The position numbers were made by a program, and so were the translations under genes. The notes below the pieces were generated by a model, which saw only the letters and a list, made by a program, of their open reading frames with translations, was not told the DNA's origin and searched no databases. DNA of 63,995 nt, filler included, from Jimgerdemannia flammicorona (lineage: Eukaryota): the NCBI GenBank assembly GCA_003990765.1. It is 3 parts of 3 records of this genome, joined end to end, with 100 filler letters (N's around TTAATTAATTAA, not from the genome) between each part and the next. Parts side by side here need not be neighbours in the genome. Positions count along the whole stretch, not along the records: positions 21,536 to 42,964 come from RBNJ01001455.1; positions 43,065 to 63,995 come from RBNJ01001564.1; 1 more part is not named here. One strand, given 5' to 3'. Positions 32,705 through 61,544 of the stretch are shown in pieces (the first letter of the stretch is position 1; every line of letters begins with the position of its first letter).

Positions 32705-33220
32705 ATAAACTAGACAATTGACCAGTGTCTCCAGACTCTTGTCCTAAGTTCATTCTAATTACTTCCAGTTCCTCTTACACGATTCCACTAAGCCAATGGA
32801 AACCCCCTCTAATAAATCTAGACCCATTAGGAGAACCTCACCTTGGTCAGACATTTACTATAAGTCTACCAGCTACAGGTCTACTATGCAATTAGAGAAT
32901 AGTTGTAGAACTTTCCAGCCCCAGACCTAATCTATATTAGGAACTCCACTGATCTGACCTGGAAAAACACAACTGCTGCAGACAGATTATATACAATCTA
33001 CAAACAAAATACCCCAGACCTGATATAGGTATGTATAGTTATCTCTGAGTAATATACAATAAATGAATCTTATCACCTATCTGAGTATCATCAATTATGT
33101 TGAAATCCTGTTCTTGGAAGAAGAAGAAGAACCTGTTGAATTGAGTGACTCTAATCTAAATAAAGATAATAGTTCAGGTATTGATGCTGAAGATACTTAT
33201 ACTTATTAAGATAATGACTA
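32705..33220 (+). pseudogene. Accessory ORF3 of family A (between IN and PPT)
   Basis: Reading through TAA/TAG codons: ...YQLQVYYAIRE*L*NFP...TTAADRLYTIY..., followed by an acidic tail (frameshifted). Confidence 0.6.
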
Positions 33221-34466
33221 AAGGATAATCCAAGGACAGATCATCCTTTAGTAGGGGCTGATGTGATGAGTAGCAGAATTATACAGCTGAAATCATAAAT
33301 TAGCTATACACTATATCTAGTGCTCTAAGTAACCAAGACTGCCTTATGCATAATTAGTCAGAGATATCAGAAACAGTATATTTATCTATACCAGTCCAGT
33401 ATACTATACTAAGTCAGTTAACTGTACCAGTCCAGTACACTGTACTATTTAGATATTCTTATATTGATAGTAATCTATAATTAGCTACATAGTAACTATT
33501 AGCAACCATAACTGTATAAAATACTCCAGAGACAAGAGTGAATAAACCTCAGTCTGAAATTCAGAATACATTTTAACTCCAGTCCCCTTTCTAATATGAC
33601 GCTTTGGTTTGCTTATCAGATAAGCCTGAAGAATTTGAGTAAATCTGCCACTCAAGGAAGAGCTGCTATTTTCAAAAAAAAAGGTCCACCACCTTGTCAC
33701 AAAGCCAGTCTGTTGATACAACTTGTAGTGAGCTTGTTTATGCAAATGAAGCCAGTCTTGATGTAACTTTGCCAAGAAGAAGAGAATCTGAGTTATTATT
33801 CAAGGAGTCTGCTGATTTAGAAGAATCTACATCATTTACCATTTTCGAGTTATCTGCAATTCCCAGAGAGCCCACCTTAAGGAAACTTGCCACAAGCTAG
33901 TCTATCTGATACAACTTCACAGTAGAGCCAGTTCCTCTCTGATGTAACTCTATGCAAACGAAGCCAGTCTTTGATGTAACTTACCAGGAATCCACAATCC
34001 AAGCTATCTGAATTATCTGTGCCATCCAGGTTATTTCTTAGAAGAATCTGCCAATTCAGAAGAATCCATGTCAAACCGAGTTATTCAAGTTATCAAGTTA
34101 TCTGACATTTCCAGAGAAGCCTGCCAATTCAGGAGAATCCACACCAAACCAAGTCATTCAAATTATCTGCCAAATCTGCATAAGGAATACTGCCAAGTTC
34201 ATCATGCCAAGGTCATCATACAGAAATCACATACTCTTGGAGATTGTCACCTAAGAAGAAAACTGCCTAAGGAATTGTCTATATTCAAGAACCATCTCAA
34301 TAAGAAAATCGACTGTTATATCCAGATTGACTATTATACCACTAAATACCAACAAGGAATCTGAGAAAATTTTGTTGCTTTTAACAAAGTAACTGAGAGC
34401 TCATGCCAAACTACACCAACTCCCAACCTTGTAAATTGCCTCTATTGAGCCAGGCACATTATATTA

Positions 34467-37400
34467 GAGTAAATAAACATCAGATCAAAATAGTTCAAAG
34501 CAAAGAGAAATCTAGAGAACTAGTAAGCCTACAGATAAATATACTTTGAACTCACCCACCCCTACATTCCAAGGACTCTGCAGAGTTAAGGAAGATTAAG
34601 TTTTTAAGATACAGAAATCCAATATACTTTCACAGTTATACATCTACTATGTTACAACTTAGTGCCCATTGACTGGGGATTCAAGATGAATCCCTCACTT
34701 TTAAGCTGAACAATGAACAACTGCTACTGTCTAAACAACCATATAAACCAAATGAAGACATCTGAACAAGATAGATATAAGATCACCAGTATTTCACAGA
34801 TATACTTCAGATGAATCAATTATTACCTTCAATGATGATTTTGAGCAACATGCTGCTATAAGTATGCTGAAAGCAAGGTAGCAAGTAGCCCTCATGCTCT
34901 TTAGTCTCTAAGGCCCAGCAAGAGCAGCATTCACAGCTATAACTTATGTGAGAAATGATGATAATGCTCTACAGATAGTACAGAATATCTGGCTTAAAGC
35001 CACCTACTATATAGATGAGATCAAGCAAGCCCTAAAGGATTAGCTCAACACAACATTCCAAGGAATGAATGAGGATCTAAATATATTCTACACTAGAATT
35101 TAATATCGGATAATCCTTATAGATTATAATACTGCTATCTAAGACAAAGTAGTGAAGGCAACCTTTATAAAGAGAGTTTACCCTAAAATAGCCAGAGCTA
35201 TCTGCTCATCACTAGTAGTCCTGGATCTGGTACAGAAGGTCACCTATGCTCAGCAATACTGGATAGCCAGATATTCACAAGACTACACAATGGAAAGAGT
35301 CACTGGCATCAGAATTGAAGCACTCAAGACAACTAGTGTCATTCCCACTACAGTGATCAATCAAAACACCTCAGCCAAGAGCTACTGAGCAGTAAAGAAA
35401 CAGTGACCCTATGGAGAAACTATCTAAGAAGTTAGCTGAAATGACCACCCACTTAGGAGATATAGTAAAGAAATCATAGAAAAAGTTCATCACCCATTTC
35501 GGAAGTTTGTCATTACCTCAGACAAGAAGAGGTATCTGCTATAGGAAGACAACTACTTATATGAATATATAAGTAAAACTAAATATAAGGCTCAACTAAG
35601 TAATGCTATATAAAATAGAGAACAAGCCAATACTATCACTTTTGAAGAGAGTGGAGAATCTGATAAAGAAGAATAGAAGACCTACTCTGTACAGACCACT
35701 AAGGATGTTTATAAGAAACCCTACAAGAGACCACCAGGGAGACTTAAGAAGAACCTAGTGGAGATATAGATGGAAACTACAACAGAAAGCCAAGCTGAAG
35801 AAATGGATCAAGACATGGAACTCAAGCAAGTAGTTCAAGATATTATCTGAGAAACTACCTCAGTCCCAGTCAGTAAAGGAGAAAAGGAAAAGAACCTTAA
35901 CAAAACTAAGACCTCAAGTATGATATCTTTAAGGACCTTAGCTAATAAAAGGTCAATAGAACCTTTGGCCAGCTGGTAGAAATTTCTATATTCAGACAGC
36001 AAATGAGATTTGGACTGACTGAAACAACTAAATAGCAAGGTTGGAAGATAACTGAGGCTAACAATGTTCAAGAAGACTCAAGAGAAGAAAGTGAAGATAA
36101 TTGCAAGATCTGCTATATAATCTGTCAAATTGAAGATAGAATCTTCAAGGTCATCATTGATACTGGAGCAGAAGGATGCCTCCTCAGCAAGAAAGCATCA
36201 GACTGCCTAAGTTGGGAGATTAAAGAAGCAACCAAGTTGGTATTTGTCACAGTAGATAGAATAAGAGCCATACCTCTTAGAAAGAGCTGAGCTATCTCTA
36301 TCAAGTTTGGAGAAGCAATCATCTTAGTAGATGTCATTATAACCAATGCAACCAACTATGACATTCTGATCAGCAATCAATGGCTTCATAAAGCCAGGGC
36401 AATAATCAATCTAAATTCCCAGAAGATACAAATTCCTATCAATGTCAACAAAGTAGTACTCTCTGAAATAGAGAAAGAAGAGAGTGAGCAAGAAGAAGCC
36501 TATATGGGGACTACTCAGAAAAAGAAGAAGAAAGTTGAATGGATCAGTAAAGAAGACTGGTATAAGAAGATTACAGGAGAATATACACTATAAGGAGTCT
36601 ACTCTCATGGAATTAAGATGTACTATATGGAGTATATCAATGATTGCTATCAGTATACTAGTGGAATCAAGAAGATCTACTATGAAAAAAGACAGAATAC
36701 TCTAGAGAAACAAGTAAGAGAAGAGAAGGAGGAGGAAGAGAATGACTAATTACCAGCTCTCCTGAAAGATAGTGATGATAAAGAGGAGATTAAGGTCAAG
36801 ATTTGGAAATCTACAAGAGTCAGAAAATGTAGCAGAAATGGATATCACTATTGTAGAAGAAATCATTCTTAAGGGCCAGATAACTCTGGAGATTACTATT
36901 CTAAAAGACAATATTGGAATCCTCAAGACAAGATATAGTCTGGCCAAGAGTGAAGAAGGAATCATTGATTTATAATATATTAAAGAAATACTACTTATTG
37001 CTAGAAACTACAACTCTATAATTTCATTTCCAATTAAGAAGAAGGACTGACTGACACAGATGTTAATCTTCTCAGTCCCATGACCAAAGATCATAGAAGA
37101 TAAGAAGTTGGAGGAAACAAAGGGAGGAAGGAAAGAATTTGGATCTATAGAAAGAAGATTATTCTCTAGTACTAATTTTACCAAGCTGAATTACAAGAAG
37201 GAAACCACAAACAAGTATAGCTATAAAATTGGAAATAAATTCCCACTCCAGAAAGAACTTAAGAAGATACTCTATGAATTTGATGATGTTCTAGCAATAG
37301 ATTTCAAGGATATCAAAGGAAAGACTCTACACTCCTATCATAATACAGACATGGGGGACTTCAAACCAATCTACCAAAAAGCAAGGCCAATACTACCAGC

Positions 37401-40400
37401 CTACCATGAATAGCTCAGAGAAGAAATCAAGCAGATAGAAGAAGTTGGTATCATCAAAGAAGCCAGTAGCCCTTGTGTTTCACCAGTTGTATTAGCTCTG
37501 AAGAAAGGAAGCAAACCAGGAGAATTTGTCCTAAGGCTCTGCACTGATTATAGGAATCTCAACCTGATTACTAAGAAGGACCACCAATTACTACCTCTCA
37601 TTAGCAATATTCTTGTAATCTTAAGAGATGAAGCATAGTACTATAGTATCTTAGACTTATATTCAGGATTCTATCAAATTGGTCTCACAGAAGCAGCAAG
37701 TAAGAAGTCAGCCTTCATCACCCCAGACAGAACCTATGTCTACCTTTAAATACCATAATATATTAGCAAGATTTTAGTGAATAATGAATAAAATCTTCTG
37801 CTACTATATGGAAAGATGAATGATAGTTATATGGATGATGTGATTATCTAGAGCAAGATAGCTGAAGAATATCTGCAGTATATCCAGCAGATAATGGAGA
37901 AGCTAAGGAAATATGGTCTTTACATCAAGCCCAAGAAGTGTAAGTTTGCAGAAATTGAGATCTTCTATCTTAGCCATATCATTAACTGAAATGGAACACA
38001 CACAGACCCTCTCAAGATTCAAACCATAGTAGTGTACCCAAGGCCCACAATTATCACTGATGCCCAAGCCTTTATGGAACTCACCTCATACTACTACAGA
38101 TTTATCAAAGGATTCTCTAACATTGCAATCTCAATCTATGAAATCAACAAGAAGAATAGTAAGTTCTAGTAGACAGGCAGACAACAAAAAGCATTCAATA
38201 AACTCAAGATTAGACTGACCAAAGCACCCATCCTCAGAAGACCTGATTGGACTCAAGAATTTATTCTGCAGACAGATACAAGTGCATAAGGACAAGGAGC
38301 TATCCTGGCCTAGAAGAAAGATAAAGTAAAGTATATTATAGCCAAGAAATCCAAGAGGCAGCAAAGAAATTTGAATCCTATAAGTTGGATTATCTCACAG
38401 TCATCTGGGCTATATAAAAGTTCTACTACTATCTTGCTGGAAGACACTTCACTATTCAGACAGATTATTCAGCCCTCACCTAGCTACTGACCATTGGACA
38501 ACCCAAAGGAATCTATGTCAGATAGATTATGAAGTTGTAGGCCTATGATGTAGCCATTGTATACTATTTTAGAAGAACCAATGTCAATATAGATGCACTC
38601 TTACAAATACTCTGAAGGACACTCAACCAACAAATAAATAGTGAATAAGAAGCTTTACTATAGAATTATCACCTATCTGAGATAGCAAAAGATACCCCAA
38701 CAACTAAAAGATGGACATAAATAATTATCAATAGAACATTGAAACAATTTAATACTGATAGAGAAATATTAAAGAAAGGAAAGCTACTAGTCATATCAGA
38801 ATGCAAGAAGGAGCAAGCAATGAAATCAGTACATAAACTTGGCCATCTAGAAGGAATGAATACTTATGAAAAAGCAAGAAGAACAATATATTTATCAGAA
38901 ATAGAAGATATTAGACAATTTGTCAAGATCTGTGATAAATACCAGAAATAGAAACAAGACCAACAAAATCAGACCCCAGGATCAGCACACATAGAACTAA
39001 TACTCTTTACACATATTGCAATAGATATAATTGGCCCTCTACTCTTGACTTTAACTTATAACTAATACATATTCATTATTGTAGACCTTTTTATAAAATA
39101 GATAGAGGTAGAATATCTCAAAGAAGCCAATATACAGTTATTTACTGATTTCTTCTACAAAGAAATTATATGCCAATTCAAGACCTCATTGCAAGTAACT
39201 ACAGACAGAGGAATAGAATTCATGAACCATTTTTTTAAAGTTCTCTACAAGAAGTACAAGATCCAGCATATTCAGACTACAGCATATTACTCTCAGAGAA
39301 ATGGACAAGCAGAAAGAACTAATAATACTCTTAAGAATATTATCACCAAGATCTGCAATAACTACAAAAATTAGGATAACTATCTGCCAATAGTATTATC
39401 CACTCTTTAGGATATCTGATCACAAAGTACCCATTTTATTTCTAGAGAAATACTGTTTAGAGAAGAAAGTTCCAAAGAAACTATATCATTCAATAGAGAT
39501 GCTATATAGAAACATGTAGATATAGAGATATGGAGACTATACTAAATCAGAAAGAAGGCTAAAGATTATATAACCAAGGTACAGGTTATAATAGAATAAT
39601 ATAGAAAAGATTCACAAACTTCTGGAGATTATCAAGATAGGAGACAAAGTTCTAGTATATTGATATATAGTAGAAGCTTCATGGTTACAAAAACTAGAGC
39701 CTAAGTGGGGAGGACCTTACCTGATACAAGATATGAAAGGAACCACATTTTGGCTATGAAAACTCTCTCATATAATCATCCTCCATACCATCTACTAAAA
39801 CTGATACAAGAAGTATCATGGCTAACAAACTAAGTACTGCTGCAGTCCTCAAGATAACCAGTGCTGCCCAAAGTACTATAGAAAGACAATGGTATACTAC
39901 TGAGCCACCCTCTATGGAATAGTATCCAGAGCATAGTCCCAATATACTTATTGTGAATTTCACATTTCAAGATCTACCAGAACTGGACCAAGTTTCAAGA
40001 ATACTTCAGTTAGGACAGCTACTGAATGTGCAGCTAGAGATAGGAAAAGAAGACTAGATTAGCAAGTGTCAGCTCTCTTATACTTAGATTACAATCACTA
40101 AATAAGTTAATAAGTTATTCGAAGATAATAAGCCAGCTATAGCTCATTTCTGAGAAGTAGTCCCAGGAGACTTTGGATATATTAAGAGTTATTATTGAGA
40201 GAGTATAATGATACAAATCATATAGTACAAGGAGATAAAACTTATGTAAGCTTAGGAGTTCTAGTAAATAGGATATTACAGAGACAAATCACCTATTCAG
40301 GAGGAAGTTGTGACAGTTAATCCAAATTAGAAACATGAATCAGAGGAATAGATATTTGATCATAGTATCTGAATCCAATTCCCTAATATAGTATAGCCTT

Positions 40401-42960: not shown

Positions 42961-42964
42961 ATCT

Positions 42965-43860: not shown

Positions 43861-45076
43861 TATTTACCCTTAACCCAAATCTAAACCTGACCCCTGAACC
43901 CAACTCTGAACCTGACCTCTAAACCCAACCCTGAACCCAATCCTCTGAACTCTGCTCTGAAAAAATGATTTGGAAAATATTTAGATAATATTCAGAGTAA
44001 TTGAAAGTGAAAAATATCTGAAGACTACCAAGAATCTAAACACATATATGCATGAATTATATTTACACATAAGCTATTTCGACATTCAGTCACTAGCTCA
44101 CCAGCAATAGAAAAAATACATTCAGATGGAACAGATGTTGCTGAAATAGTAAGATAATTGTAAGCCATTTATGAAAGATTAGGATATACTGACTGATTTC
44201 ATCACCATCAATCTAGTATATCTATAGGAGGATTAGATAGATTCTCTAACAAATAACTGAAATAGAGAAAGATGAGTGAAAATTAACCAAGTTAACCAAA
44301 AAACATAAAAACAACACCCATTATTCAAGCTCATCATCCACATCAATATGCTGTTTCTTCTCATATATTGAGTTGATAAAATCATTGACATCATGAGATA
44401 TTGAGGGTATAATGACAGCATTAATAGGCTTATACTCCTTTTACCAGATATATTCCATCTGATTCTTTCATTCATCAATTAAGGATTTTTTTCATTGCTT
44501 ATGACAGAAATAATGCATATTGATATGTAGATCTAAGGCTGAAGCTATGCTATATAATGGTGTTGTCTTGTAGTAATACTTTAGAAGTTTCATATGCTGT
44601 CATGTAGTGGTTGCTGAGTTCTTCAAATATGCTAGATTCTCTTCAAGGTGTATCTCTTAGACTAACTCAAGTTTGTTATAAGCAAGTTCTTATTGGAGTA
44701 CCTTCCCAAGGTCTTATAGTCCTCAAACTTCTTATCTTTAAACTGTCTTATTATCTCTTAGATTGCTTGCAAGGAAGTGTGTGTATTGCACTGAGAAAAC
44801 TGACTTTATTTCAGAGAAAATAAGAGGGGTATTTATACAAAATATAATTCAATGGTTGCTAAGATATAAAGCTAAATATAAATTTTAATAACTAAAACTA
44901 CTAAGTTCCAGGGTCAGCACTGATGGTTGTATAGGTTCAGAATGCTGGTATAATTCAGTATCACATTAGAATACTGGTGCTAGAACAATTTTGCATTACC
45001 TCAGAATGCCAGTACTGGCATTATCCAGTGTTACATCAAAATACTGGTGCTGGCATTATTTAGTATAACAAGGAAC

Positions 45077-45874
45077 TTAGAGCAGAATGTTCAGGATCAT
45101 GGGGGCTTCATCATCATCATCATCATCACTGAAGGAGATGAGATCTGCAAATTCATCATTTTCACATGCTTTGATATCGCATGGGATGACATCATCACTG
45201 ATGATGTCATCACATTCGGTGGTAGGGAAATCGGGGGCTCTCCAATCTATGAGGTTCTCTTCCACAAAATAAGGGACAAATGTGGGATCTTGGGGAGATC
45301 TAACCTGGATACTTGGGCCTTGGAATACTGAGATCAATTCTTGCAGAAATTGGTCTGAGTTGTTCTGAAGGATGGGGTGCTAGAAGTTTTCTACTTCTTC
45401 ACTGTTGAGGGTGATAGTGGACTGGGCTTCTGTAGCTACTCTGGCTTCTAGTGCATTGATGCAGTGGGATGACAGGTCTCTGAAATCTGAGACTCTAACA
45501 TACTCTAAGTTGGGGATCAACTATGGTGTATGCCTGAAGATCTAATGGATCTTCTTAGCTGTTCTTGTTTCATGTATATCCATGGGAGTGGCATCTTGTA
45601 GCTCTTGAGTACTGGCCTGTGGGAACTCCTGGCAGAGGAGGTTTCCTATTTCATACTTCTGCCACATTTGGAGGCATTCGGTAGCAATGATGATCCTTGT
45701 TTCTATTTCACAGTGGTAGAGGATAAAGTGATAGGGATCTGCAGTACCAAGGTTGATACTAGGAGTCCTTCTTGAGTGAGTCCTCATGGCTCTTCTGATG
45801 TCTTGGAACATCCTTTCCTCAACTGAGATGCCTTGGTAGTTCCTTGACCTTGAGGTTTGGTGAGTAGCAGGCAT
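45077..45874 (-). pseudogene. LTR-encoded accessory ORF3 of family C (3' LTR copy, 265 codons, several stops)
   Basis: Same length and frame as 52359-53156. Its stops fall at different positions from those in the other LTR. Confidence 0.8.
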
Positions 45875-48800
45875 TTCATTTGTGGTAAGTCTTTGAGCTA
45901 TTTTGGGATTAGTGGTTCTTGTTGGTTGCTGCTACTGCAGTTCCTTGATCTTTCTTTTATATTCTTCAGGATGCTTGAACTGTGGTCACAATGACTCACA
46001 GTTGGTCATCATTACTCATCTCATATGCCATATGATCTTCTTGTGCTCTGATCTGGTGGCTTGCAAGGAAAGGCTGTCTCCTGTACTGATGTCATCATTC
46101 TGGGGTTACTGTTATATCTTCCTCCTGAATAAGGATCTTCCTGAGCATCCTTATTCATTGGTCCAGTTCTGAAAAATTTGCTGATCCCATAACCTCTGGC
46201 AAGGGGTTGAAAAGTGGTATTAATGGGCTGGCATCTTCCCTTTGTATTTTGACATAATGGTGAAGGGTCACTCCCTTCATATAGAGCAAGGGCCTGATTC
46301 TGATCTTGATCAATCAGTTGATGGTTTGAACTTCTCTGACTTTGAAAGTCTTATGGATGAGTAGTTGCTAGTGCCATATCCCTTAGAGAATGGTTCAGAC
46401 AGATAGCCTGCTGGTCATGAGACATGCTGTTATGATTCATGGACTAGAACCTCATGGGTGGTCATCACATTTTGCTTCTCTTGTATAGATTTATGGTACT
46501 TCTTGAGTCTGTTCCTATATACTATAGTAGGCAGTATAGTCCCTGAGATTTTTCTAAGCCAGAAGGTAGTTCTCTTAATATCTTGCACATAGACGGGTCC
46601 TTCCCATTTGGGCTCTAGTTTTTGTGACCATAAGGCTTCTACCATATTTTGATATAGTAGAACCTTTTCTCTGATTTGGATGGGTTCTAGGGCCATGTGA
46701 TTCTTTTCTGCATTCTTCCTTGTCAGCACTTGTGACTTGGTGATGTAATCTTCAGCCTTCTTCCTGATTTGGTGTAGTCTCTGGATTTCTGCATCAACCT
46801 GTCTCCAGTTAGGTCTAGATTTGTGGCTGAGGTTCCATCAGAATCTTCTTCTCTGAAGAGCAACTCCCTTGGGGTAAAGTGTGTACTCTGTGACTGTATA
46901 TCTCATAGAACAGAGAGGGCAGTTGGGAGATAATTATCCCAATTCTCATATGTCTCTGAGATCTTCACTAGGATGTTCTTGAGGGTCTTGTTGGTTCTCT
47001 CTGTCTATCCATTTCCTTGAGGGTGGTATGCAGTAGTCTTGATGTGCTGGATCTTGTATTTCTGATACATTATCTCATGGAATCCATTGACAAATTCTGT
47101 TCTATGGTCTGTTGTGATTTACTTTGGTGTCTTATAGTAGCAGATGATTTCTCAGTACAGGAAGTCAGCTATAGAGAGGACATTAGCTTCTTGTAATATT
47201 CCTGTCTCTATCTATTTGGTGAAGAGGTCTATAATAACTATAATATAATGGTTTCCTGATAGTGTTACTGATAGCAGTCCAATGATATCCATTGCAATGT
47301 GGTGGAAGGGGATAGGCTCAATTCTTGATGATCCAGGTATCTGGTCTTGCTGATCTTATTTCTGTTTTTGGCACTTGTCATACTCTTTGACAAATTGGTA
47401 CAGGTCTTCTTCCATCTTGGGCCACCACATGGTTCTTCTTGCCTTGTCATATGTATTGGTTCTTCCTAGGTGTCCTTGCTCATATACTTCCTTCATTACT
47501 TGATACTTCTTGTGTTTGGGTATTTCTAGCTTTCTTCCTTTTCTGAGTGTAGTGTTGTCTAGTTTAAACTGTTTCCAAGTCCAGTTGATAATAGTGATTG
47601 TCCAGGGTTCGAGGTGGTTGGACATCTTCCGCTGCCCAAGATAGCTGATTAATCCATAGTATAGCTCCTTATTCATGTTGAATAGTCTTGATGGAGGTGT
47701 TTCGGGGTATCCTTGAGAGTGCATCGGCATTGGTATTGGTCTTTTCTAAGTGGTGCTTAATAGTACAGTCATACTCTTGCAGCCTGTAGATCTATCTGGC
47801 ATATATTCCTTTGGGGTTCAGAGTGTGGAATAGTCAGGCAAGAGTGGAATGGTCTGTTTGAATGGTGAAGTGTTTTCTGACTAAGTAGTAGTGGAACTTG
47901 TCTACTGCTCAAACTACTGCTAAGCATTCAAGCTTGCATGACTTGTAGTTCTGTTCTGCTCTGTGGGTACCTTGGCTTACATAAGAGATGATATATTCAT
48001 GTCCATCTTTCTTCTGAGCTAGAACTGCTCTAAGTCCTATAGTACTTGCATCTGTCTGCAGGATGAATTCTAGGTTCCAGTCTGGTCTTCTGATGATAGG
48101 TGTTTGAGTTAATCTGATCTTGAGTTTATTGAAGATTTCTTAGTGCTCCTTGGTCTATTTGAATTTGGTCTCCTTATTCAGTAGCTCATAGATAGGTGCT
48201 GCAATGTTGGAGTATCCTTTGATGAACCTTCTGTAGTAGCTGGCCAGTCCAAGGAAGGCATGGACTTCTGTGGTTGTTCTGGGTCTTGGATAGGCTGCAA
48301 CAGCCTCAATCTTTATGGGGTCTATGTGGATTCCAGTCTGGTTGATGAGATGTTCTAGATAAGCGATTTCCTGGGCTGCAAACTTATATTTCTTGGGCTT
48401 GATGTAGAGGCCATGCTCCTTGAGCTTCTTGAGGACTAGCTGTATGTGATTGACATGTTCCTGTACAGTGTTGCTGAAGATGATCACATCATCAATATAG
48501 ATAAAGAGCCATTTTCCAATCTCATTGCTGAAGACTCTGTTCATCATTTACTGAAAACTTGCTAGGGCATTACACATTCCAAATGGTATTTGCAAATAGA
48601 TATAGGTGATGTCAGGTGTGATGAAGGCTGATTTCTTACTGGCATCTTGAGTGAGACCAATCTGATGGAAGCCTGAGAACAGATCCAAGGTGGTGTAGTA
48701 TTTGGCTTTGCTTCCAAGAGTGGTAAGGATTTCTTGAATATTCGGCAAGGGCTGCCTATCCTTCTTAGTAATGGTATTAAGCTTTCTGTAGTCAATGCAG

Positions 48801-51800
48801 AGTCTTGGTGCAAACTCTCCAAGCTTGCTTTCTTTCTTTGGGGCAAGAACAATGAGTGAGGCCCAGGGGCTGATAGCTTGCTTGATGATTCTGACTTCTT
48901 CTATTTCCTTGAGTTCTGCTCACAGCCATTCTCTGTAGGCAGGTGGTATGGGTCTGGCTTTCTGGTAGATGGGCTTGGTATCACTGGTGTCAACTTTGTG
49001 ATAGTACTTAGGTTCTTGATTGTGGATATCCCTGAAGTCTGTAGCAAGTACTCCTTCATTCTGATACAGGATCTTGAGAAGTTGTTCCTCCAGGGAAAAG
49101 TTTTCTCTAATAGTATATGTGTACTTGTTCTGGTCCTTGTCTTTCTTGTATTTAAGTTCAGTTATCTTAGTGATGGTATAGGCTCCTCTTTCAGTAGATC
49201 CAAAGCCTTGTTCTCCTCTCTTGATCTTGATGAGTTCAATGACTTCAATGATCTTGGGTTTCTTGATTTCATGGATCAGCTGGCCAATCCTGTCATGCTT
49301 CTTAACTTCAAATGGGGTGGTGTGGTTGTGATTTCTGACTATGAGGAAGATCTCGCCAGTATAATCAAGGTCAATTACTCCTCCTTCAACTGAGATTTCG
49401 CTTTTGGCCAGACTGCTCTTAGTCTTGATGATTCTGGTATAGTTCTCTGGTAACTTGACTCCAATTCCTGTGCCAAGTAGAGTGGTGGTCTATGGTTCAA
49501 GGGTAGCATCTTGAATGCTGGCAAGGTCCATTTCTATGGCTCCTTCAGTCTTATATTCTGGGATCTTGGCTTCAGGGTGAAACTTCTTGACCTTGAGGGT
49601 GATATCTGATTCTTGTTCCTCCTCATTGTCACTGTCAGCTTGAAGTTCTGGGGGCTGGTCATCTTCTTCAGCTTTCCTTTTTGCTTCGGCAGCTTCTTAC
49701 TCATGTTTCTATTGGTGGATTTTCCTGACTTCACTGATATAGGACCAGCAGTCATTCAGGTATTTAGAGCAGTACATCCTAGTACTATGGAGGCATCTTC
49801 CTTGAGGGGCATACCTATCGATAATCTTATTGTACCACTGCTCATCTGTGAGCTTGGGTGTCTTGTTCTTGTTCTTGTTCACCGAGTGTATGAAGACTTC
49901 TGTGTCTTTTTCATCTCCTTCCTCTATATCTGGTAGAACTTCTTTTTTTTTTTTTTTTTTTTTTGGTAGAACTCCTTTGTGGACATTGATAGAGACTTGT
50001 ACCTTTGTTCCTCTATAGTTGATCTGCATCTTCTGGGCATTGAGATCAATGATGGCCTTGGCCTTGTGAAGCTATTGGTTACCAATGAGGATGTCATAAT
50101 TGGTGGCACTTGTAACAATCATGTCTATTGGGATGGTAGCTCCTCCTATCTTGATGGGGACTTCTTGGATTTTGCTAAGGAGGATAGCTCGTATACCATC
50201 TGCTGTGACATAGACCATCTTGGTGGACTCTTCAATATCCCAGCCTAGGTGGTCAATTGCCTTCTTGCTCATGAGGCATCCTCCAGCACCAGTATCAATG
50301 ATGGCATCAAAGATACAGTCTTTGATCTGACAGGGGGTATAGGCTGATATCTTGTGCTGGTCTTCAGATTCTTCACCTGAGTTCTCAGATTCTTTCTGTA
50401 CATTGTGAGCTTCTACAATCTTATACTCTTGATTCTTGGTGGTAGTTGCAAGTCCTACTCTCAACTGCTGTCTGAAGGCAGTAACTTCAGTTAGTTGTCC
50501 AAAAGTAGTATTGATCTTCTGTTTCTTGAGGTCCTTGTAGATGTCATACTGATGGATCTTGGTCTTATGCAGCTTCTGTTTCTTCTTGCTTTCACTTTCT
50601 CCTGAGACTGGAGTAGTGCCTTCAATGATTTGGTGGGTAGCTTCATCTAACTCCATGTCTTGATCAATCTCCTCAGGTTGGATATTGCTTTGAATAGTGA
50701 CAGCTAGGGTCTTCTTTGGTCTTCCAACTGACTTGCTGTTGCTCTTCTTGTCATAGGACTTGGACTGGGTTCTGGTACCTTCAGTAGCAGGGTAGAATTC
50801 AAGCTCCTCATAGTATTCTTTATCATCAGTATCACCAATCTCCTTGATGACAACTGTATTGATTTGTTCTCTAGTTCTGCTAGCATTGCTTGGTTGGGCT
50901 TTGCATCTTGTTTCAGTCATGCAACTCTTTGCATAGTGGTCTTCTTCTCCACATCTGAAGTATATAATATTGTATTCTTCTGTAGCAGCTGCAAATCTCT
51001 ACACTGGTCTCCTGTTGGCACTTCAGACTTCTCTAACAACATCACCAAGGTGTGCAGTCATCTCAGTAAACTGCTTGGTGAGTTCTTCCACTGGGTCAGC
51101 TTTGGCTGTCTTGGGGGTAGATGGGGTTGGTTGTCTGTTTACAACTGTGGCAGGTATAATACTAGTTGGCTTTGATGGCTCTATCTTGATGCCAGTTATT
51201 TTCTCTATTGAGTGTTCAGCAGGGTGTCTGGCAGTCCAATATCTCTGTGCAAAGACCACTTTCTGATCAAGAGTCAGTGCAGCTGAGGTAGATCGGATTG
51301 CTAGGGCAATTTCAGGATGAACTCCTTTGAGGAAGATTGAATCTGCTATTTGTTTCTTGAGGTGGTCATCATAGCCAGCCAAGACAATCTAATGGCAGAT
51401 TTGGGTATAGAATGAGTTGGGATCTTCACTAAGTCTCTGGCAGATAGTATTGAGTTGATCCTTGAGAGCTTGCTTGATCTCTTCAGTATAATATGTTGTT
51501 CTGAGGAAGACCTTCATGTTGGCAAGTTTGGCTGCACCAGTATTAGCAATGGTAGCTGTATTGAACTTGTCTCTGGCAGGTCCTCTGAGACTGACTGATA
51601 GAAGGGCTAATTGAGCATCCACACCAAGGGCTCATATGGTGGCGAAATGTTCAAAGTCTTCAATGAAGGTCAGGATTGACTCTTCAGTAGTATATTCATA
51701 GAATGTGGGGGGATGCATTTCCATCTTGTCTTGAATTCTTGCAGGGGTGACTCTTGTAGTCAGGGTAGTTGTTGTGGGGATTGTTTGTTTTTCAGCTTGA

Positions 51801-52358
51801 AAGTGAGGGATTCATCTTGAATCACTAGTCAATAGGCACCAAGTTGTCATGTAGTGGTTGCTGAGTCCTTCAAATATACCAGATTCTCTTCAAGGTGTAT
51901 CTCTTAGACTAACTCAAGTTTGTTATAAGCAAGTTCTTATTGGAGTGCCTTCTCAAGGTCTTATAGTCCTCAAACTTCTTATCTTTAAACTGTCTTGTTA
52001 TCTCTTAGATTGCTTACAAGGAAGTGTATATATTGCACTGAGAAGACTGACTTTATTTCAGAGGAAATAAGAGGGGTATTTATACAAAATATAATTCAAT
52101 AGTTGCTAAGATATAAAGCTAAATATAAATTCCAATAACTAAAACTACTAAGTTTCAGAGTCAGCACTAATAGTTGTACAGGTTCAGAATGCTGTTATAA
52201 TTTAGTGTCACATCAGAATACCAGTGCTAGAATAATTTTGCATCACCTCAGAATGCCAATGCTGGCATTATCCTGTATTACATCAAAATACTAGTACTGG
52301 CATTATCCAGTATTATATCAAAATACCGGTGCTGGCATTATTCAGTGTAACAAGGAAC

Positions 52359-53156
52359 TTAGAGCAAAATGTTCAGGATCATGGGGGCTTCATCATCATC
52401 ATCATCATCACTGAAGGAGATGAGATCCATGAATTCATCGTTTTCATGTACTTCGATGTCATGCAGGATGACATCATTGCTAATGATGTCATCACATTTG
52501 GCAGTGGGGAAATCAGGGGCTCTCCAATCTATGAGGTTCTCTTCCACAAAATAAGGAACAAATGTGGGGTCTTGGAGAGATCTAACCTGGATGCTTAGAC
52601 CTTGGAATACTGAGATCAATCCTTGCAGGAATTGGTCTGGGTTGTCCTGAAGGATGGGGTGCCAGAAGTCTTCTACTTCTTCACTATTGAGGGTGATAGT
52701 GGACTGGGCTTCTGTAGCTACCCTGGCTTCTAGTACATTGATGCGGTGGGATGACAGGTCTCTGAAATCTGAGACTCTAACATACTCCAAGTTGGGAATT
52801 GACCATGGTACATGTCTGAAGATCTGATGGATTTTCTTAGCTGTCCTTGTTTCATGTATATCCATGAGAGTGGTATCTTGTAGCTCTTGAGTACTGGTCT
52901 GTGGGAACTCCCGGCAGAGGAGGTTTCCTATTTCGTACTTCTGCTACATTTGGAGGCATTCAGTAGCAATGGTGATCCTTGTTTCCATTTCACAGTAGTA
53001 GAGGATAAAGTGATAAGGATCTGTGGTACCCAAGTTGACACTAGGAGTTCTTCTTGAGTAGGTCCTCATGGCTCTTCTGATGTCTTGGAACATCCTTTTC
53101 TCAACTGAGATGCCTTGGTAGTTCCTTGATCTTGAGGTTTGGTGGGCAGCAGGCAT
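52359..53156 (-). pseudogene. LTR-encoded accessory ORF3 of family C (5' LTR copy, single TGG>TAG stop)
   Basis: The ORF-track pieces 52944-53156 and 52359-52865 are one frame. The TAG at 52944 is TGG in the other LTR. Confidence 0.82.
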
Positions 53157-55484
53157 TTCATTTGTGGTAAGTCTTTGAGCTATTTTGGGATTAGTGGTTC
53201 TTATTGATTACTGCTACTGCAGTTCCTTGATCCTTCTTTTATATTCTTCAGAATGCTTATACTGTGGTCACAATGACTCACAGTTGGTCATCATTGCTCA
53301 TCTTGTATGCTGTATGATCTTCTTGTGCTCTGATCTGGTGGCTTGCAAGAAAAGGCTGTCTCCTGTACTGATGTCATCATTCTGGAGTCACCATTATAAT
53401 ACATTCTCAGTAGCAGTAAGCATTATCTATAAAAAATAAAAATATATACATATTACTTCCCAATTACTTACTAAATTAGTTCCTAAATTCACAAATAAAA
53501 TTACTTTCAAAATCATATATATACCTGATTAAAATATTCACCAGTTTGATATATATTGATGATATCTTTGAGGTGATCACATAACCGATTAAATAGTGAG
53601 ATAACAGCTGCTATTGTAAGATACTTCGAAGTTGACATCACAGTTGTCACTTTGGTAAAAGGCTCAAGAAATTGGCAAATCAATTCAAATTGTTGTTATG
53701 CATCTTCAGATATATTACTCATTTGCTTATCTATGATACACAATATATCCAAACCCTATTTAGATGTAATATCAATTTATTTAGTACCAAAATACTTCTG
53801 AATCATATTCCAAAATCTATACAAATAGATTTAAAATCTTATCTTATGAATCTCTAGAGTATATGCTAACATTTCATATATAGAACTCCATCTCATCATA
53901 ATATCTAAGAGAGGCTTCAAAATAGGAATTCTGGAGGATTCACAGACCTTTGCTAGTTGTACTTATCATTGTGCTAAATTTTTGATCTTCTTTATTAACT
54001 CCTATAGCTTTTCAATGGGCTCGCTAAGAGAACCAAGAGCATTATAAACAACGAGATTCAATATATACCTGAAACAGCATACATGAGCAAGTGGATGATG
54101 GAGATTCTCAAACAGAGTATTATTGTTACTAATATTATTATACACAATAGCAATGATTTAATTATCACTAGGTAATAAATCATCTATTACCAGCTTCAGA
54201 CTTTTTGCAAAATTGGCACCCATGTGTGTTATTTTGCTAATATTCACAAAGTCTAAGATAATGTTATATATCTTCCAATCACTGTCAATCTAATGAGCTG
54301 TTATTCCAAGGAAGGCCTTGATGTTAACATCCAATGTCCACTAATCAAGTATAAGTGACACCTTCAACTTGAGCCCTGTTAGCCTTGCTTTTACTTGAGT
54401 CTGCAATAGTTTGAATTCCTTTTGAATAACTCATGAAATTATATCAGCTGATAGAAGGGCCAGATTAGGGCATAATATGTGAAGAAGATACTTGAAGCCA
54501 GTGTTTTTGATAGTGGAGAATAGCTGATATCCAGTGATAATAAAGTTGGTAATTAACCAATAGAAATTTTCATCACTTAAAGTCTTGCTAGTGTGTTCTT
54601 ATTTATAATCTAATAACCTCCTAAGTACTTCCTGAATTCCATTCTATCCATACTCACAATATCATCTTTCTTAGACCAGTGAGGATTCTCAGCATACTGA
54701 AGAGGTAAGAGCATGGCATTGTGATGCTTTCAGAGATGTTGTTTAAGATTGTTGATATTGCCATCCTTCAATATATAGCTCTAAGTTATGCAATAGTTAC
54801 AACTGATGAGCTTACTTTGTAAATTCTATTTGAATAGAGAGATATGAGACTATATTAGAACCTCAACCACTTACAACTGACCACCCACCCTTACAACTGA
54901 TGAGACCAATTATCCCTGTAAATGCAACTATTAGTACAATATATAAAACTACCTTTGTGATATGATTCCACACTCAGCTATTACCAGGTTTTGTTTTTAT
55001 TTTTTTCTTGTACTTATTGATGATAACAAACTAGTGGAGACATCTGATATATCCTTCAATATATCCTCTGATATATCATCCGATGGTTATGAGATTTCTC
55101 CTAAATACACTTCTTGATCTTTAGACATTTCAAATATTTAATGATAGTGGGGACTAGGAGCTTGAGTGGGAGGCCAAGAGCTGGAAAGTAGCTAGGAAGT
55201 GGTGAGCTAGAGAGTGGTGAACTGGGAAACAAGCTGGGGGGGCAGTGAACTAGAGGGCAGGGAGTTGAGAGGAGGTGGTGAGCAGCAGGAAAAGCCAGGA
55301 ACTGTGGGGCCTGAAACAGGAGTCAGCAAGCTGGGGGGCAGCAAGAGAGAGAGCAGTAAGGTGGTGTGCAATAGCCAATAATTGATTGTGGACAGAGGAT
55401 GGATGAATAAATATGCATGGGTGGTGAACTGGTACCCATCATGCAACTGCAAACAGCAAACATACTTTGGATATTCAGCATATT

Positions 55485-55782: not shown

Positions 55783-55797
55783 CCCACTGAATCACAG

Positions 55798-57899: not shown

Positions 57900-58145
57900 G
57901 GTTGGGTTAAAGATGGGTTATGTATAATTCTGGGTCAGATTAAAGATAGGTGATATATATTTCCAGGTTGGGTTAAAGATGAGTGATATATAATTTTGGG
58001 TTAGGTTAAAGATAGGTGACATATTATTCTGAGTTGGATTAAAGATAGGTGACATATAATTCTGGGTCAGGTTAAAGATAGGTGATATATAATTCCAGGT
58101 CAGGTTAAAGATAGGTGATATATAATTCTGGGTCAGGTTAAATAT
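57900..58145 (-). repeat. 33-bp tandem array (right subterminal repeats of the hAT element)
   Basis: Unit about ggtcaggttaaagataggtgatatataattctg. Confidence 0.88.
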
Positions 58146-59764
58146 GTACATGGGTTGGCTCAGGTTACAATATACTAGCCATTTATTATCAGTCTATTAA
58201 TAAGTTTACAGTATTACCTCCCACTACCCAATCTCTATAGGAGAGCCTCTCTCCACATTATTATGAATAAAGACCACACTACTCCAACTCTCCTCCCACT
58301 CTGCTTACAGATTTTCTCCACCAAGCAATACCTTCAACTATCCTACAACCCCCAACCAAGCCACCAGTTTGTCAAGATGTCTTCCATAAGACTATACCAA
58401 TGCAACAGTCTGTCCCTCAAGCCCAGTCTCCTTCCATCCTCAAAAACAAATAATCAGTAACTGGCCAACTCCACCCAAATCACCAAAACTCAGTCTAAGA
58501 TAAGCCACTCCTTCCCCACCCCCCCCACCAGTCTATCCCTCAAATCCTCCCACCAACTCTGTACACCATCTCCCCTACACACTACCCCTGAATGATCCCC
58601 AACAGTCTACCAAAAGTCACTAAGTACCTTATACTCTCCTAGCCAATGTTCAGACATCTGCACATATCTCCCTTCCTGCCCTACATTATGGCACTCCTCA
58701 CAGGAAGTAACCTCCCTCGATAAGATGACCTAAGTAGAAGTTGAGCATTATATTTCTCCTCATCAGACCACCTAATATTTTGGTAGTATCTATCTCCTCA
58801 CCTCAGCACTCCAGGTCCAAATACTATGCCAGTTCCACTCCTCTAATACTCACTCCCTGCCATCTGTTAGGCTACAGATCCTGGCCTGATCCCCTTTGGC
58901 ATTCTATCCTATCACTAATGTCAAACTCAATTAAGGGAATGCCTCTCAGTAATACTCAGTTCCATCTTCACATTACTGAGTCTCAAGCTACCTCTCCTTT
59001 ATTTCTCTGCCAAAAAATTACAATATAGTGTACCTCCTCTGCTACCCTACACCAGAAGTCTTTGAATTACAATTTTTCAGTATTCTGAAGTCCAACCAAT
59101 GACAGGAGATCTCCTGTCATGCCTCTTGGTGAGGATCTCATCTCTCAGACCTTCTGTAATAGGGGGACCTAACTGCCCCCTCTCAACTCCACTGCTCTCT
59201 TTAACCACCATGCTCTCAAGCAGTATAGCCTCTTTGGAAAGTCAACCAGCCTAAGTCCTCCTCTTGCCACTGGTAAGGATAAGACCTCCCAACTGATCTA
59301 ACTCCTTCTTCTAGCCCAGATCCACTCCTTGGCCAGCTTTATCAATCTCTTCACTACCCAGGCTGGGAAGTCCAGATGATAAGCCAGATACTACAACTTC
59401 AGCAGCCAATAGACATTCAAAATTGAGACATGCTCTGCTAGAGATAAGTGGCAACCCCCCCAACTCTGCAGGGCCTTTGTAAGAGGGTTGCTTTTTAAGA
59501 GTAACCATTATGTAGTTCTGGAAGGATTTTCTGGAAGTTCTGGATGTTCTGGAAGACTGTTTTCTTATGGTCAAGATCAATTTAATATGGAGTATATCCT
59601 CTATGCTTATTGATTTCAAGATCAGGTTGACATCTCAACCAAAGTTCTTTTTTTGAACTAGTTCTAGATGTTCAGGATTTTCAGTATTTTAGGAAGTTCA
59701 AGAGACTAAGACCAGCTTAGTTGAATTGGTATATTGCTGTAGACAATACCCAATTAGAAAATTT

Positions 59765-61544
59765 TGTGATGTGGTTAGGAGTGGGATCTAATAGAGAGCG
59801 GATTTACTTAAGAGTGGTTTGTGGGTTATTTGAATAGGTTTATTTGCTATTTCATGATATTGCTATACTAGGAGTAGTTGTGTGAAGGGATATTATAGGG
59901 AAGTATTCAGGAATGTTCTTGTGTATTTGAGTCTGAGATTCTGAGGTCTAGGGGAGGGGGTATTTATACTAGTGAGGGGCTATCTAGACTATGCTGAATA
60001 TGGATGTAGCACTAAGTACCTTGCTGAGTCAGAATGCAGTCACATAGTACAAGTGTGATCTGACATGTCAAGAGATCATCTGACTGCTGAGTCAGTTCAC
60101 AGTCACATCGTACAAGGCTAATCTAACTATACTATGACTGCTTAGGCTATTTATAGGTTTAGGCACTGTCTGGGTAGTCCTCGATGACATCACCATCAAT
60201 TGTATCATCTCTGATGAAGTAGTCATCTAGAAAGAGTGGTTCACAGATTACTTCTCCTTGTTTGCTGAGGTAATAATACATTGGAACTTCGTCTCTATCC
60301 TACAAGATGGCATCATCAGTCTCATATGCTGGATAAGGTGTTGGTGGACAAAAGAGGGGTGCATCATCTTCACTTTTGTCAAATTCGCTGTCTGCATATC
60401 TTCTGTAGGTTACAGCACTATGAGTCATGGGGTTGTAGTAAGCTGGTGGCTGTAGTTCATGTTGCTCATACTCAGGTGGTGGAGTGGTTGGTTCAATCTC
60501 GAGGGTTGTCTGGAGGTACAGGTTGTGTTCTCTGGTCTCTTCATTGTAGTTGAAGTAATCAGGGGTAAATGCGGGTTAGTATTCATACCAGTGGTTATTG
60601 TCCCAATAAGTCTCATAGGCTGTTATGAATTGTTGTAAGTTCATCGGCAAGGTTGGCAGTGTGATCAGGGTTGACAGAGATCCTTGGCTAGAGGTCATGT
60701 TGGCATTAGAGAGATCATTGTCTTCTGCTTTATCTTCATCGAAGTAGATTATATCATAGATGTCCTTCATGGCATATCCAACTTGGGGTATTTGCAGGAT
60801 ATGATCATTGGGGTGTGGGAAGGTTCTGTCTGTAGTTTCGATGTACTTGAGGTACTTGTAGTTGAGTTCTTGTATCATGTCATTAATTTAGCCATAGGAC
60901 AGGGTAGCAACCATTTTGGCTGTAGTAACTCGAAGGTGGGAAATAATGGTGCTATACTCGTAGAAGAGTTCTTGATGTTTGCAGGCAATGAGCTTCTGGT
61001 GTTGAGACATCTGGGTAATGTCTGTATCGTGGTGATGTTCGATCATGTCTTTCAGGAGGTGGCCAATCTGGTAGTAGCTTGAGATTTGTCTGATTCAGTG
61101 GGCCTTACTAAGCATGTTCAGAGCATTTCATTGGGCTTCCACAAAGTAGAGGGGTGCTAGGCTATGGATATTCATGAGGGGTAGAGGGGGTGTGGCTCAG
61201 TTGACAATGGTATTCCAAATGTCAGCACAGATACAGGTATAGATCTCAGTGGTCATGTTTGTGTGTTTGGAAGTTGTGGTTATTGTTTGTTTTGGTTCTC
61301 TGATTCGACGCATCTCAGTGCTCGGTATATATATATTTGATCCTGATTGGTAAGATTCTATTTGTGTAAATCTTGTGTTCTGTGACTTCATATTGACTCA
61401 GCTTTGTATGCTGTAACTTCAGTTTGACTCAGCTTCATAATCAAGCAGGTGATTTCCAGATATGTTCAGAGGTCGCATGTGATTTCAGTGGCTTGTTCAG
61501 AGGGTGATGTGTAATTTCGGTGGCTTGGAGGTTGTGCACTTACA
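59765..61544 (-). mobile_element. 1.78-kb LTR of family D containing ORF3, followed by about 300 bp of presumed internal sequence (59470-59764)
   Basis: Termini TGTAAGTG...CACATCACA; GTATAAATACCCCTC TATA (same as family C LTR) followed by AATAAA; inserted in LINE ORF2; no TSD. Confidence 0.75.
60159..61256 (-). pseudogene. LTR-encoded accessory ORF3 of family D (365 codons with in-frame stops)
   Basis: Single frame MTTEIY...SSYYQIGHLLK...IACKHQELF...LSYG*INDM...PPPEY..PPAY..acidic tail. Stops are TGA/TAA/TAG compatible with CGA/CAA/CAG. Confidence 0.75.

Follow-up and report, generated by a model that had tools for sequence, protein, structure and literature searches.

Decayed Ty3/gypsy retrotransposons of Jimgerdemannia flammicorona probably carry a conserved accessory gene beyond gag-pol, recognisable both as a gene family and by its placement. 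In elements C and D the gene lies within the long terminal repeat (LTR) itself, which is unusual, and it is absent from the family databases that we searched. It is best explained as an accessory gene restricted to one lineage, a group of fungal Ty3/gypsy retrotransposons in some of which pol contains a dUTPase. The window analysed here is a stretch of 63,995 nt made of three joined records, and all positions count along the whole stretch (Table 1). Loci A to D lie where the original prediction had placed them, each on the sense strand of its own element, and the observation as a whole is largely upheld for the C and D genes and the two placements, but A is a wreck and B is weak. The description of four LTR families needs qualifying, as D is seen just as a solo LTR and B and C are related (pol 67% identical in DNA, primer-site leader identical).

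Table 1. Positions of the accessory gene copies and of the associated element features in the window
Feature	Position	Strand	Basis or remark
Element C, full-length Ty3/gypsy, 1.5-kb LTRs	44598..53398	-	LTR pair and Pfam pol domains
5' LTR of C	51845..53398	-	LTR pair; TGG-containing leader next to it
3' LTR of C	44598..46116	-	LTR pair; polypurine tract precedes
TGG-containing leader after 5' LTR of C	51803-51833	-	common to B
Polypurine tract of C	46117-46127	-	purine run directly adjoining first base of 3' LTR
dUTPase domain in pol of C, between protease and reverse transcriptase	49193..49573	-	PF00692, E 1.8e-22, residues 758-884 of read-through frame
ORF C, 5' LTR copy	52359..53156	-	265 codons, 1 internal stop; 86% identical to intact P0001
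ORF C, 3' LTR copy	45077..45874	-	265 codons, 3 internal stops
TATA box about 85 nt upstream of ORF C start	53234..53246 (second copy 45952-45964)	-
TATAAATA box then AATAAA, downstream of ORF C	52046..52086 (second copy 44799-44839)	-
B, possible remnant in decay, located after pol and before polypurine tract; element B spans about 34466-40791	39818..40260	+
Polypurine tract of B	about 40296-40309	+	aligns with that of C
3' LTR of B	about 40310-40791	+	start aligns with that of C; TATA 40577-40592, AATAAA 40602-40617
D solo LTR, 2,067 bp, within LINE	59478..61544	-	ends TGTAAG...CTTACA and target duplication
ORF D	60159..61256	-	365 codons, 6 internal stops; intact relatives P0013, P0007
TATAAATA box (59956-59970) and AATAAA (59836-59848), downstream of ORF D	59836..59970	-
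A, decayed gene remnant directly after pol of element A (25615-34465)	32726..33220	+	HMM, hhalign
TATA/AATAAA module downstream of A	33512..33552	+	18-nt exact match to L002
A2, another copy of A tail in advanced decay, covering pol end, ORF region and TATA/AATAAA	16800..17720	-	66% identical to 32668-33262

Gene copies in elements A to D

Element C has the hallmarks of an LTR element, namely direct LTRs (90% identity over 1556 columns), a TGG-containing leader at the primer-site position and a polypurine tract preceding the 3' LTR; its target duplication, read by eye, is ambiguous (GTAT against GCAT). Pfam searches revealed the pol order protease, reverse transcriptase, RNase H and integrase that characterizes Ty3/gypsy elements (Metaviridae). 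The protease (residues 502-600), RVT_1 (1014-1163) and RNase H (1231-1358) share one read-through frame, and Integrase_H2C2 and rve lie downstream in a different one. The pol regions of both C and A contain a dUTPase (PF00692, E 5.8e-20 in A), as do the dUTPase-bearing fungal Gypsy elements (PMC2864245).

As predicted, ORF C is located inside the LTR; both LTRs of the element contain it, and the polypurine tract directly adjoins the LTR. No codon is stopped in both copies, and every internal stop is a TGG>TAG or CAG>TAG change relative to the sister LTR. Because the stops differ between the copies and each is a sense codon in the sister LTR, ORF C was open when the element inserted. ORF D likewise lies inside an LTR, a solo LTR flanked by the 5-bp target duplication AAGGC (61545-61549 and 59473-59477) and inserted at a point where the reverse-transcriptase frame of a LINE is broken. 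Two intact relatives, P0013 and P0007, cover its N-terminal 128 and its last 247 residues, respectively, and at six of six stops P0013 or P0007 has R, W or Q. All internal stops of ORFs C and D are C>T or G>A changes from a sense codon, as judged from the sister LTR or from intact database relatives; both were once intact genes, open at insertion.

Remnant A matches HMMs of the N-terminal domain shared by C and D at 10.7-13.9 bits (HMMER, E 0.002-0.018, at 32804-33004) and the domain profile by hhalign (P 0.0028). Its signal is confined to one of three frames, and none of 500 shuffles scored as high when the profile scoring allowed for C>T and G>A decay. This modest domain match is what survives of the alignment proposed for A, which has stops throughout (22 in 165 codons, and 8 within the matched 78 codons) and whose acidic tail, near 33100-33220, is in a frame other than that of the domain. 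A is a wreck rather than an ORF; it requires a frameshift and the read-through of 22 stops. The polypurine tract and LTR start of element A are uncheckable because its 5' LTR is reduced to 159 bp; the gene was probably internal, before the polypurine tract. In A2, no trace of the family's protein signal is left.

The B remnant possibly carries the N-terminal domain of the family. It matched the domain profile by hhalign with P 0.006 over 49 columns (residues 76-124, about 40043-40189) in the register read by eye, ahead of 150 out of 150 random pieces of the window (best control 0.025) and in one of three frames, but HMMER returned nothing significant (2-3 bits, E 3.6-8.2), and the match of B is weak. 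Under decay-aware scoring, 16 of 500 shuffles were as high, and no acidic tail was seen. The placement of B is as predicted: the ORF precedes a polypurine tract and an LTR start that are both homologous to those of C. The terminal 198 bp of this LTR recur at 34461-34657.

Shared domain, database relatives and selection

The alignment of C and D made by eye is real. Comparison of hhalign profiles built from 12 C-type and 3 D-type sequences gave 91% probability (E 1.1e-6, 123 columns) in the very register first proposed, a stronger result than earlier comparisons by plain blastp (E 2.8) or by hhalign with few sequences (P 0.018). Moreover, an HMM for which no sequences other than database proteins were used scored 27.2 bits on D (E 1.3e-7 among 852 window pieces), against a maximum of 10.2 bits over 25,560 shuffled decoys. 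HMM matches to the domain lie at 52719-53096 and 45437-45814 in the ORF C copies and at 60867-61229 in ORF D, and a six-frame HMM search of the window, gag regions included, had no match outside C, D and A. A predicted helical N-terminal domain of about 125 residues is shared by C-type and D-type proteins and, at a modest level, by A; it is marked in C and D by the motifs Y-x-I-G-x-x-L and A-[KR]-[KR]-x-H-Q-[IV]-F-x-H-x-P. Beyond it, neither HMM nor hhalign aligned C-type with D-type sequences. The tails are acidic and otherwise unrelated or variable; the acidic tails noticed at the outset hold for C-type and D-type proteins (8 database proteins, full-length or C-terminal, have 12-21 D+E among their last 70 residues), but that of A is off-frame. 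Family proteins have a net charge of -20 to -36, and the C-types closest to the window copy (P0001, P0002 and P0015) have 9-10 K+R in their first 45 residues.

The helical core first proposed agrees with predicted helices, but in low-confidence models (pLDDT 56 and 52), and a fold search with both found nothing above coiled-coil noise. The protein is not env-like, as stated originally: the maximal 19-residue Kyte-Doolittle mean is 1.05 among 9 proteins, with no membrane segment and no Pfam env family. Nor did any named family match: 8 proteins had no Pfam match at E<=0.1, and a search of PDB sequences gave no match. At E<=1, Pfam matched none of C, D and A and none of 7 of the 8 database proteins; the best match for the remaining one, GAE_BBS1 (E 0.23), is unrelated. 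Such ORFs are masked along with repeats, which explains why the protein-family databases searched lack this family.

Protein databases contain six relatives among 1.84 billion representatives, all on short metagenome contigs. By search, intact relatives amounted to 6 of 197 candidates and to 1 of 243, and more were recovered as cluster members of 247-342 residues, the frames being intact although the relatives are only 20-80% identical. The interpretation of a retained, selected, non-env accessory protein is borne out, except that "old" is relative, the family being very narrow, and that only the N-terminal part is shared.

Comparison of C with the metagenome relative L002 gave a dN/dS of 0.18-0.19 (differences by codon position 86/63/127), below the 0.37-0.64 of neutral simulations with the same transition bias, in which 0 of 300 copies remained stop-free at 30% divergence. 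The gene is under purifying selection, as the claim of retention implied. The two C LTR copies (dN/dS 0.25) also fall below the simulated range, and the simulation may therefore understate mutational bias. These results bear on the reading that the ORFs are chance open frames in long LTRs, alike through shared LTR DNA ancestry rather than as proteins. This reading could draw on the many stops in A and B and on the lack of significant pairwise blastp matches among A-D. It is nevertheless very improbable, being already contradicted by the dN/dS values, the simulations and the C-D hhalign match; it also conflicts with the length of the open frames across such divergence, the third-position excess and the confinement of the A and B signals to one of three frames. 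Furthermore, C and D LTR DNA is not alignable apart from short motifs, yet the protein domains align.

Because the relatives' contigs are short (<=4.8 kb, without pol), their only links to retrotransposons are LTR-like motifs in L002 and an upstream TATA in L001. LTR elements can transduce host sequence, and relatives confined to short pol-less contigs could be host genes, of which a captured piece is carried by the LTRs. This origin is improbable given that L002 has the TATA/AATAAA module of the window LTRs after its ORF, that L001 and L002 share the leader of C just upstream of the start codon, and that at least three types of element, unrelated in LTR sequence, contain the gene. Introns are not visible, and six relatives in so large a database ill suit a conserved host gene.

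Gene placement and a putative expression module

Downstream of the ORF, a TATA/AATAAA module is present in A, A2, B, both copies of C, D and L002. A TATA box also precedes the ORF in C (both copies), L001 and L002, with a TATAAAAG box at a similar distance in L001 and L002. We infer from these motifs that the TATAAATA/AATAAA module corresponds to the LTR core promoter and poly(A) signal, the U3/R/U5, promoter and poly(A) assignments being motif-based throughout. In every case the gene sits 3' of pol and 5' of this conserved module.

The two placements of the gene are real: before the polypurine tract in B, and within the LTR in C and D. In B, and probably in A, the polypurine tract follows the gene, which makes the gene internal. 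In C and D the gene would be part of U3 because the polypurine tract precedes it; it would then be copied to both LTRs and persist wherever a solo LTR remains. In C-type copies, where the start codon follows a TATA box by about 60-95 nt, each LTR would resemble a small self-contained gene made of TATA, ORF and AATAAA. None of the listed sequencing runs holding the sequence is recorded as RNA.

This organization raises the rather unlikely prospect that the LTR is an autonomous gene, that solo LTRs encode a family-wide trans-acting regulator and that the cassette is modular and exchanged among lineages. Such an LTR would have a TATA box to itself and, with its poly(A) signal, would frame an ORF of 265-365 codons. 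Solo LTRs could stay coding in their thousands, their product acting as a "public good" activator or as a copy-number brake. The gene's position before the polypurine tract in B and in U3 of the close relative C would mean that the cassette moved or the tract shifted, and the cassette may have passed among retroelement lineages having unrelated LTRs.

Possible functions and comparison with known systems

Our best guess, though one of low probability, is that the protein acts in the nucleus to regulate how its own element is transcribed or silenced; it would have a basic patch near the N-terminus, and its acidic tail may resemble an activation domain. Alternatively, the protein could help the particle or its RNA rather than transcription, as a chaperone, as an aid to packaging or nuclear import, or as a partner of Gag, made from a subgenomic or LTR-born mRNA. 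This would fit with a gene that A, B and C keep in cis with their gag-pol, with the strong charge of the protein and with a long predicted helix that could oligomerise. We consider such a role rather unlikely, as Pfam shows no zinc knuckle and no known RNA-binding domain, the gag regions gave no match to the family HMM, and the net charge is atypical of a nucleic-acid chaperone.

A counter-defence factor against host silencing (RNAi, DNA methylation or repeat-induced mutation) would follow a logic comparable to that of plant VANC proteins. The window copies are heavily decayed by C>T/G>A changes, for the most part at CpA/TpG sites (47 of the 92 transitions scored between the two LTRs of C), from which we infer a strong host defence against these elements, and the family is narrow and fast-evolving. 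However, no known suppressor is similar in Pfam or PDB and all window copies are themselves dead, which makes this function unlikely.

If fungal LTRs do contain a conserved protein family under selection, solo LTRs, usually seen as inert scars or promoters, would be able to encode protein, and the family would offer an inroad to self-regulation or genome-defence resistance of fungal retrotransposons. The family is testable, with intact members, a defined domain and clear transcript-end predictions, and it matters for annotation that repeat masking hides its LTR-borne ORFs. Extra genes in LTR retrotransposons are rare and largely uncharacterised.

To our knowledge, a sense gene inside an LTR is known mainly from one mammalian retrovirus. 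The superantigen gene sag of mouse mammary tumour virus (MMTV) lies in U3 and encodes a membrane glycoprotein; like the gene described here, it is a sense gene 3' of the polypurine tract, doubled in both LTRs. The fungal proteins differ in having no hydrophobic segment, no Pfam match and an apparent TATA box of their own. The Pfam search did not place them in the MMTV Sag family, although the placement in U3 is common to both. Complex retroviruses likewise have extra, regulatory genes 3' of pol: foamy-virus Tas/Bel1 acts as an activator in the nucleus, has an acidic activation region and is driven by an internal promoter distinct from that of the LTR, and nef of HIV/SIV overlaps U3. Searches of Pfam, PDB and folds found no sequence or fold similarity.

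Among mobile elements, bdelloid rotifers have additional ORFs common to diverse retroelement types (PMC5408684), which, going by their description only, are comparable as one accessory family across LTR-element lineages, in an animal host. Some fungal chromodomain Gypsy elements are drawn with an "additional ORF with unknown function" and some dUTPase-bearing basidiomycete elements have the dUTPase flanked by protease and reverse transcriptase (PMC2864245), as in A and C. In both cases a fungal Ty3/gypsy element bears an additional ORF; the likeness is one of description, as the available text gives neither the sequence family nor the position of the ORF that is drawn. In Boty-like elements of Botrytis cinerea, the extra gene brtn (PMC8365987) is similarly an addition of unknown function to a fungal gypsy element, but it is antisense, whereas the gene in the window has sense orientation and, in C and D, lies within the LTR.

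Relatedness of the accessory ORFs

On sequence evidence we regard as real an accessory gene family of fungal Ty3/gypsy elements that is unannotated in the family databases searched, and two instances of this gene lie inside LTRs. The original prediction had assigned the extra sense-strand ORFs of four LTR-element loci (A to D) to one family. Pairwise blastp among the four loci in all sense frames gave nothing significant between types (best E values of 2.8 for C-D and 0.5 for B-D); an A-B match at E 3e-11 falls in the integrase end. Comparison of C with D by hhalign gave P 0.018 with few sequences, and a probability of 91% (E 1.1e-6, 123 columns) with 12 C-type and three D-type sequences. A HMMER profile built from database proteins alone scored D at 27.2 bits (E 1.3e-7, 852 six-frame pieces of the window), against a maximum of 10.2 bits among 25,560 shuffled decoys. 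These profile comparisons place C and D in one family through a shared, predicted helical N-terminal domain of about 125 residues (N-domain), to which their alignment is confined.

The evidence for A and B is graded. A is likely a decayed member of the family, judging from its HMMER scores (10.7-13.9 bits, E 0.002-0.018), which exceed those of every decoy in each of three profile versions, from hhalign (P 0.0028, 78 columns), and from profile scoring made tolerant of T<-C and A<-G decay, in which none of 500 codon shuffles reached the observed score. For B, HMMER found nothing significant (E 3.6-8.2), the decay-aware score was reached by 16 of 500 shuffles, and hhalign gave P 0.006 over 49 columns; B is a possible decayed member, the sequence comparisons leaning modestly that way. 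In each of A and B the signal is restricted to one of the three frames. As hhalign controls, 150 random 150-residue pieces were drawn from the window's retroelement part, and none scored at P<=0.01 (best 0.025). Two further sequences, the C spacer between pol and the polypurine tract, and A2, a second, decayed copy of the element A tail, gave P 0.35-0.85 against the family over all frames. When purine/pyrimidine-coded DNA of A and B was compared with the ORF DNA of C, D and two metagenome loci carrying relatives (L001 and L002), under scoring that was in the wrong regime, seven of eight comparisons fell within the shuffle range, and for B versus D 4 of 100 shuffles scored as high. The four-locus family stands for C and D, is likely to include A, and extends to B as a possibility.

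Coding status and predicted protein

Transitions make up about 87% of the base differences between the element C LTRs, and 47 of the 92 scored transitions lie in a CpA/TpG context, a decay that generates many TAG and TAA stops. The two ORF C copies carry one and three internal stops, with no codon stopped in both and each stop explained by G>A or C>T; at all six internal stop positions of ORF D, the intact relatives have R, W or Q. Database searches yielded intact proteins for C (6 of 197 candidates) and for D (1 of 243); the C profile found six relatives among 1.84 billion cluster representatives, P0013 has an intact D-type N-terminus, and additional intact cluster members span 247-342 residues. 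All intact relatives lie on metagenome-assembly contigs of <=4.8 kb. The third of the word-based searches, in which the alignment was mixed, gave only 2 of 1,364 candidates. None of 34 pattern matches in viral contigs was confirmed, as against 2 of 159 in metagenome contigs, both on contigs of <=1.5 kb; the 4.8-kb contig of the relative P0010 was not recovered.

Taken together, the sequence data show that ORF C and ORF D are genes. Between C and the L002 DNA dN/dS is 0.18-0.19, with a third-position excess of differences (86/63/127 by codon position), and neutral simulation with 87% transitions gave 0.37-0.64, none of 300 simulated copies staying open at 30% divergence; the true neutral value may nevertheless lie below the simulated one, since the two ORF C copies in the LTRs of element C, where neutral drift is expected, themselves differ with a dN/dS of 0.25 (codon positions 22/14/34). 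Context-dependent CpA>TpA mutation bias may account for this low value.

The protein matches no described domain by Pfam, PDB sequence or fold search. Pfam gave no family at E<=0.1 for window ORFs and eight database proteins, the PDB sequence profile search had no match at E<=1, and Foldseek had none against PDB at E<=0.001. A wide VIA-align search returned long-helix matches throughout (best Z 4.7, none at Z>=5), and nothing in the fold search overall rose above coiled-coil noise; the top match in the protein atlas, at 0.91 and with low recognition, was to an unnamed cluster and gave no lead. AlphaFold models reached a pLDDT of 56, or 52 for the N-domain alone, the former being the one used in the fold searches, and both weak models agree on a predicted N-domain of six or seven helices, one of about 37 residues. 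The proposed acidic tail and lack of a membrane segment are borne out by the composition of the family proteins: the tails are acidic, net charges of whole proteins range from -5 to -36, and no membrane segment was found in the proteins examined. Of the C-type proteins, the three nearest to the window copy (P0001, P0002 and P0015) have a basic N-terminal patch. That the protein acts as a nuclear regulator of the element is a reasonable guess, and we put it no higher. Comparison systems are MMTV sag, nef, Tas and VANC.

Organization of the elements and position of the ORFs

Element C has LTRs of 1,519 and 1,554 bp with 90% identity in self-comparison, encodes protease, dUTPase, RT, RNase H and integrase domains in pol, and carries ORF C starting 242 nt inside each LTR. 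Locus D had been described as an LTR element with the ORF inside its LTR; the position of the ORF holds, starting 288 nt inside, but the ends and the AAGGC duplication identify a solo LTR rather than a full element. Its insertion site is the reverse-transcriptase gene of a LINE. The LINE-like element it splits has an endonuclease-like start by eye and RVT_1 by Pfam; a second, 65% identical copy opens the middle contig, whose end truncates it.

Positions of features in the window
Feature	Position	Strand	Remarks
Element A	25615-34465	+	pol with dUTPase
dUTPase domain, element A	29464-29820	+	in pol
A2	16800-17720	-	second copy of element A tail
ORF B	39818-40260		
Element C	44598-53398	-	self-comparison and junctions
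LTRs of element C	44598-46116; 51845-53398		
Polypurine tract of C	46117-46127	-	abuts 3' LTR
dUTPase domain, element C	49193-49573	-	in pol, between protease and RT
D solo LTR, 2,067 bp	59478-61544	-	ends TGTAAG...CTTACA; 5-bp duplication AAGGC
LINE-like element split by D	58600-59472; 61550-63995	-	
Second LINE-like copy	21536-23377		start of middle contig
Repeat family (81% identical) with 33-bp tandem arrays beside it	43091-43573 and 58179-58651; 43607-43870 and 57865-58178		
23-bp tandem unit	20685-21184		just before first contig joint
Further TATAAATA...AATAAA module	271-345	+	window start

By sequence, element B is a relative of element C: their pol regions have 67% DNA identity, and the two share the leader that follows the 5' LTR. 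At ~40296-40325, B aligns with the C polypurine tract and the start of the C LTR, which leaves a B 3' LTR of only ~480 bp (40310-40791). The proposed location of ORF B before the polypurine tract is thereby confirmed. A placement of ORF B within a long LTR, with its 5' copy interrupted by A, was also considered and was rejected because the C-homologous tract and LTR start follow the ORF. Self-comparison and junction reading show that only the last 198 bp of the B 5' LTR are left, directly abutting the end of element A, as expected if A is nested there; the simplest reading, consistent with these junctions, is that A inserted into the B 5' LTR, with the other half off the contig. At 34461-34466 the 3' end of A meets the 5'-truncated B LTR a few bases ahead of B's AATAAA. 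Element A retains 159 bp of its 5' LTR, beside a LINE running off the contig. A2 extends from the last pol codons to ~25 nt past AATAAA with no detectable pol upstream; in form it resembles a copy made from the 3' end of a polyadenylated transcript and truncated on its 5' side, more than it does a solo LTR.

A literature search on ORFs inside retrotransposon LTRs found no fungal LTR-embedded sense gene. PMC2864245 describes dUTPase in Gypsy elements of basidiomycetes, and also an 'additional ORF' of Gypsy elements that is uncharacterised; PMC8365987 describes brtn as an antisense extra gene of Botrytis elements.

Transcription motifs and setting of the window

A conserved module, a TATAAATA-type box with AATAAA ~20 nt after it in most copies and ~110 nt after it in D, follows the ORF in A, A2 and B, in both LTRs of C, in D and in L002. 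We interpret this module as core promoter and poly(A) signal of the LTR, a reading that would place ORF C and ORF D in U3. In C, L001 and L002, a second TATA box precedes the start codon by ~60-95 nt, and a conserved leader lies directly before the ATG; judging from these motifs, the LTR looks like a self-contained transcription unit. The further module at the window start, in the same style, may mark another LTR fragment. Near both ends of L001, at about 165-200 and about 1475-1510, lies a similar 30-40-nt motif, ~1.3 kb apart, and this contig may have been assembled across LTR copies in tandem or in circular form.

Of the 22 runs that contain the sequence, none is on record as RNA. Contigs of four runs were placed on 44400-53600. 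In X13, whose RNA label is a guess, they lie on the LTRs at high word depth with most inner bins empty; contig depth cannot rank element parts, nor can contigs give transcript ends, and this pattern carries no weight for or against expression. At the LTR edges some X13 contigs continue into unlike sequence. Coverage by the two DNA runs is even over all 30 bins of this interval.

The window consists of three contigs, linked at 21436-21535 and 42965-43064 by N runs around TTAATTAATTAA, and adjacency across either joint is thus no evidence. Bases 1-16000 hold fungal-looking ordinary genes (G+C ~55%), which by eye in the printed frames we take to include a SET/MYND protein, a UDP-glucuronate decarboxylase and others; beyond them lie nested and decayed retroelements (G+C 25-42%). 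Another repeat family has adjacent arrays of a 33-bp tandem unit, with opposite orientation at the two sites, and a 23-bp unit is repeated in ~15 or more copies just before the first joint.
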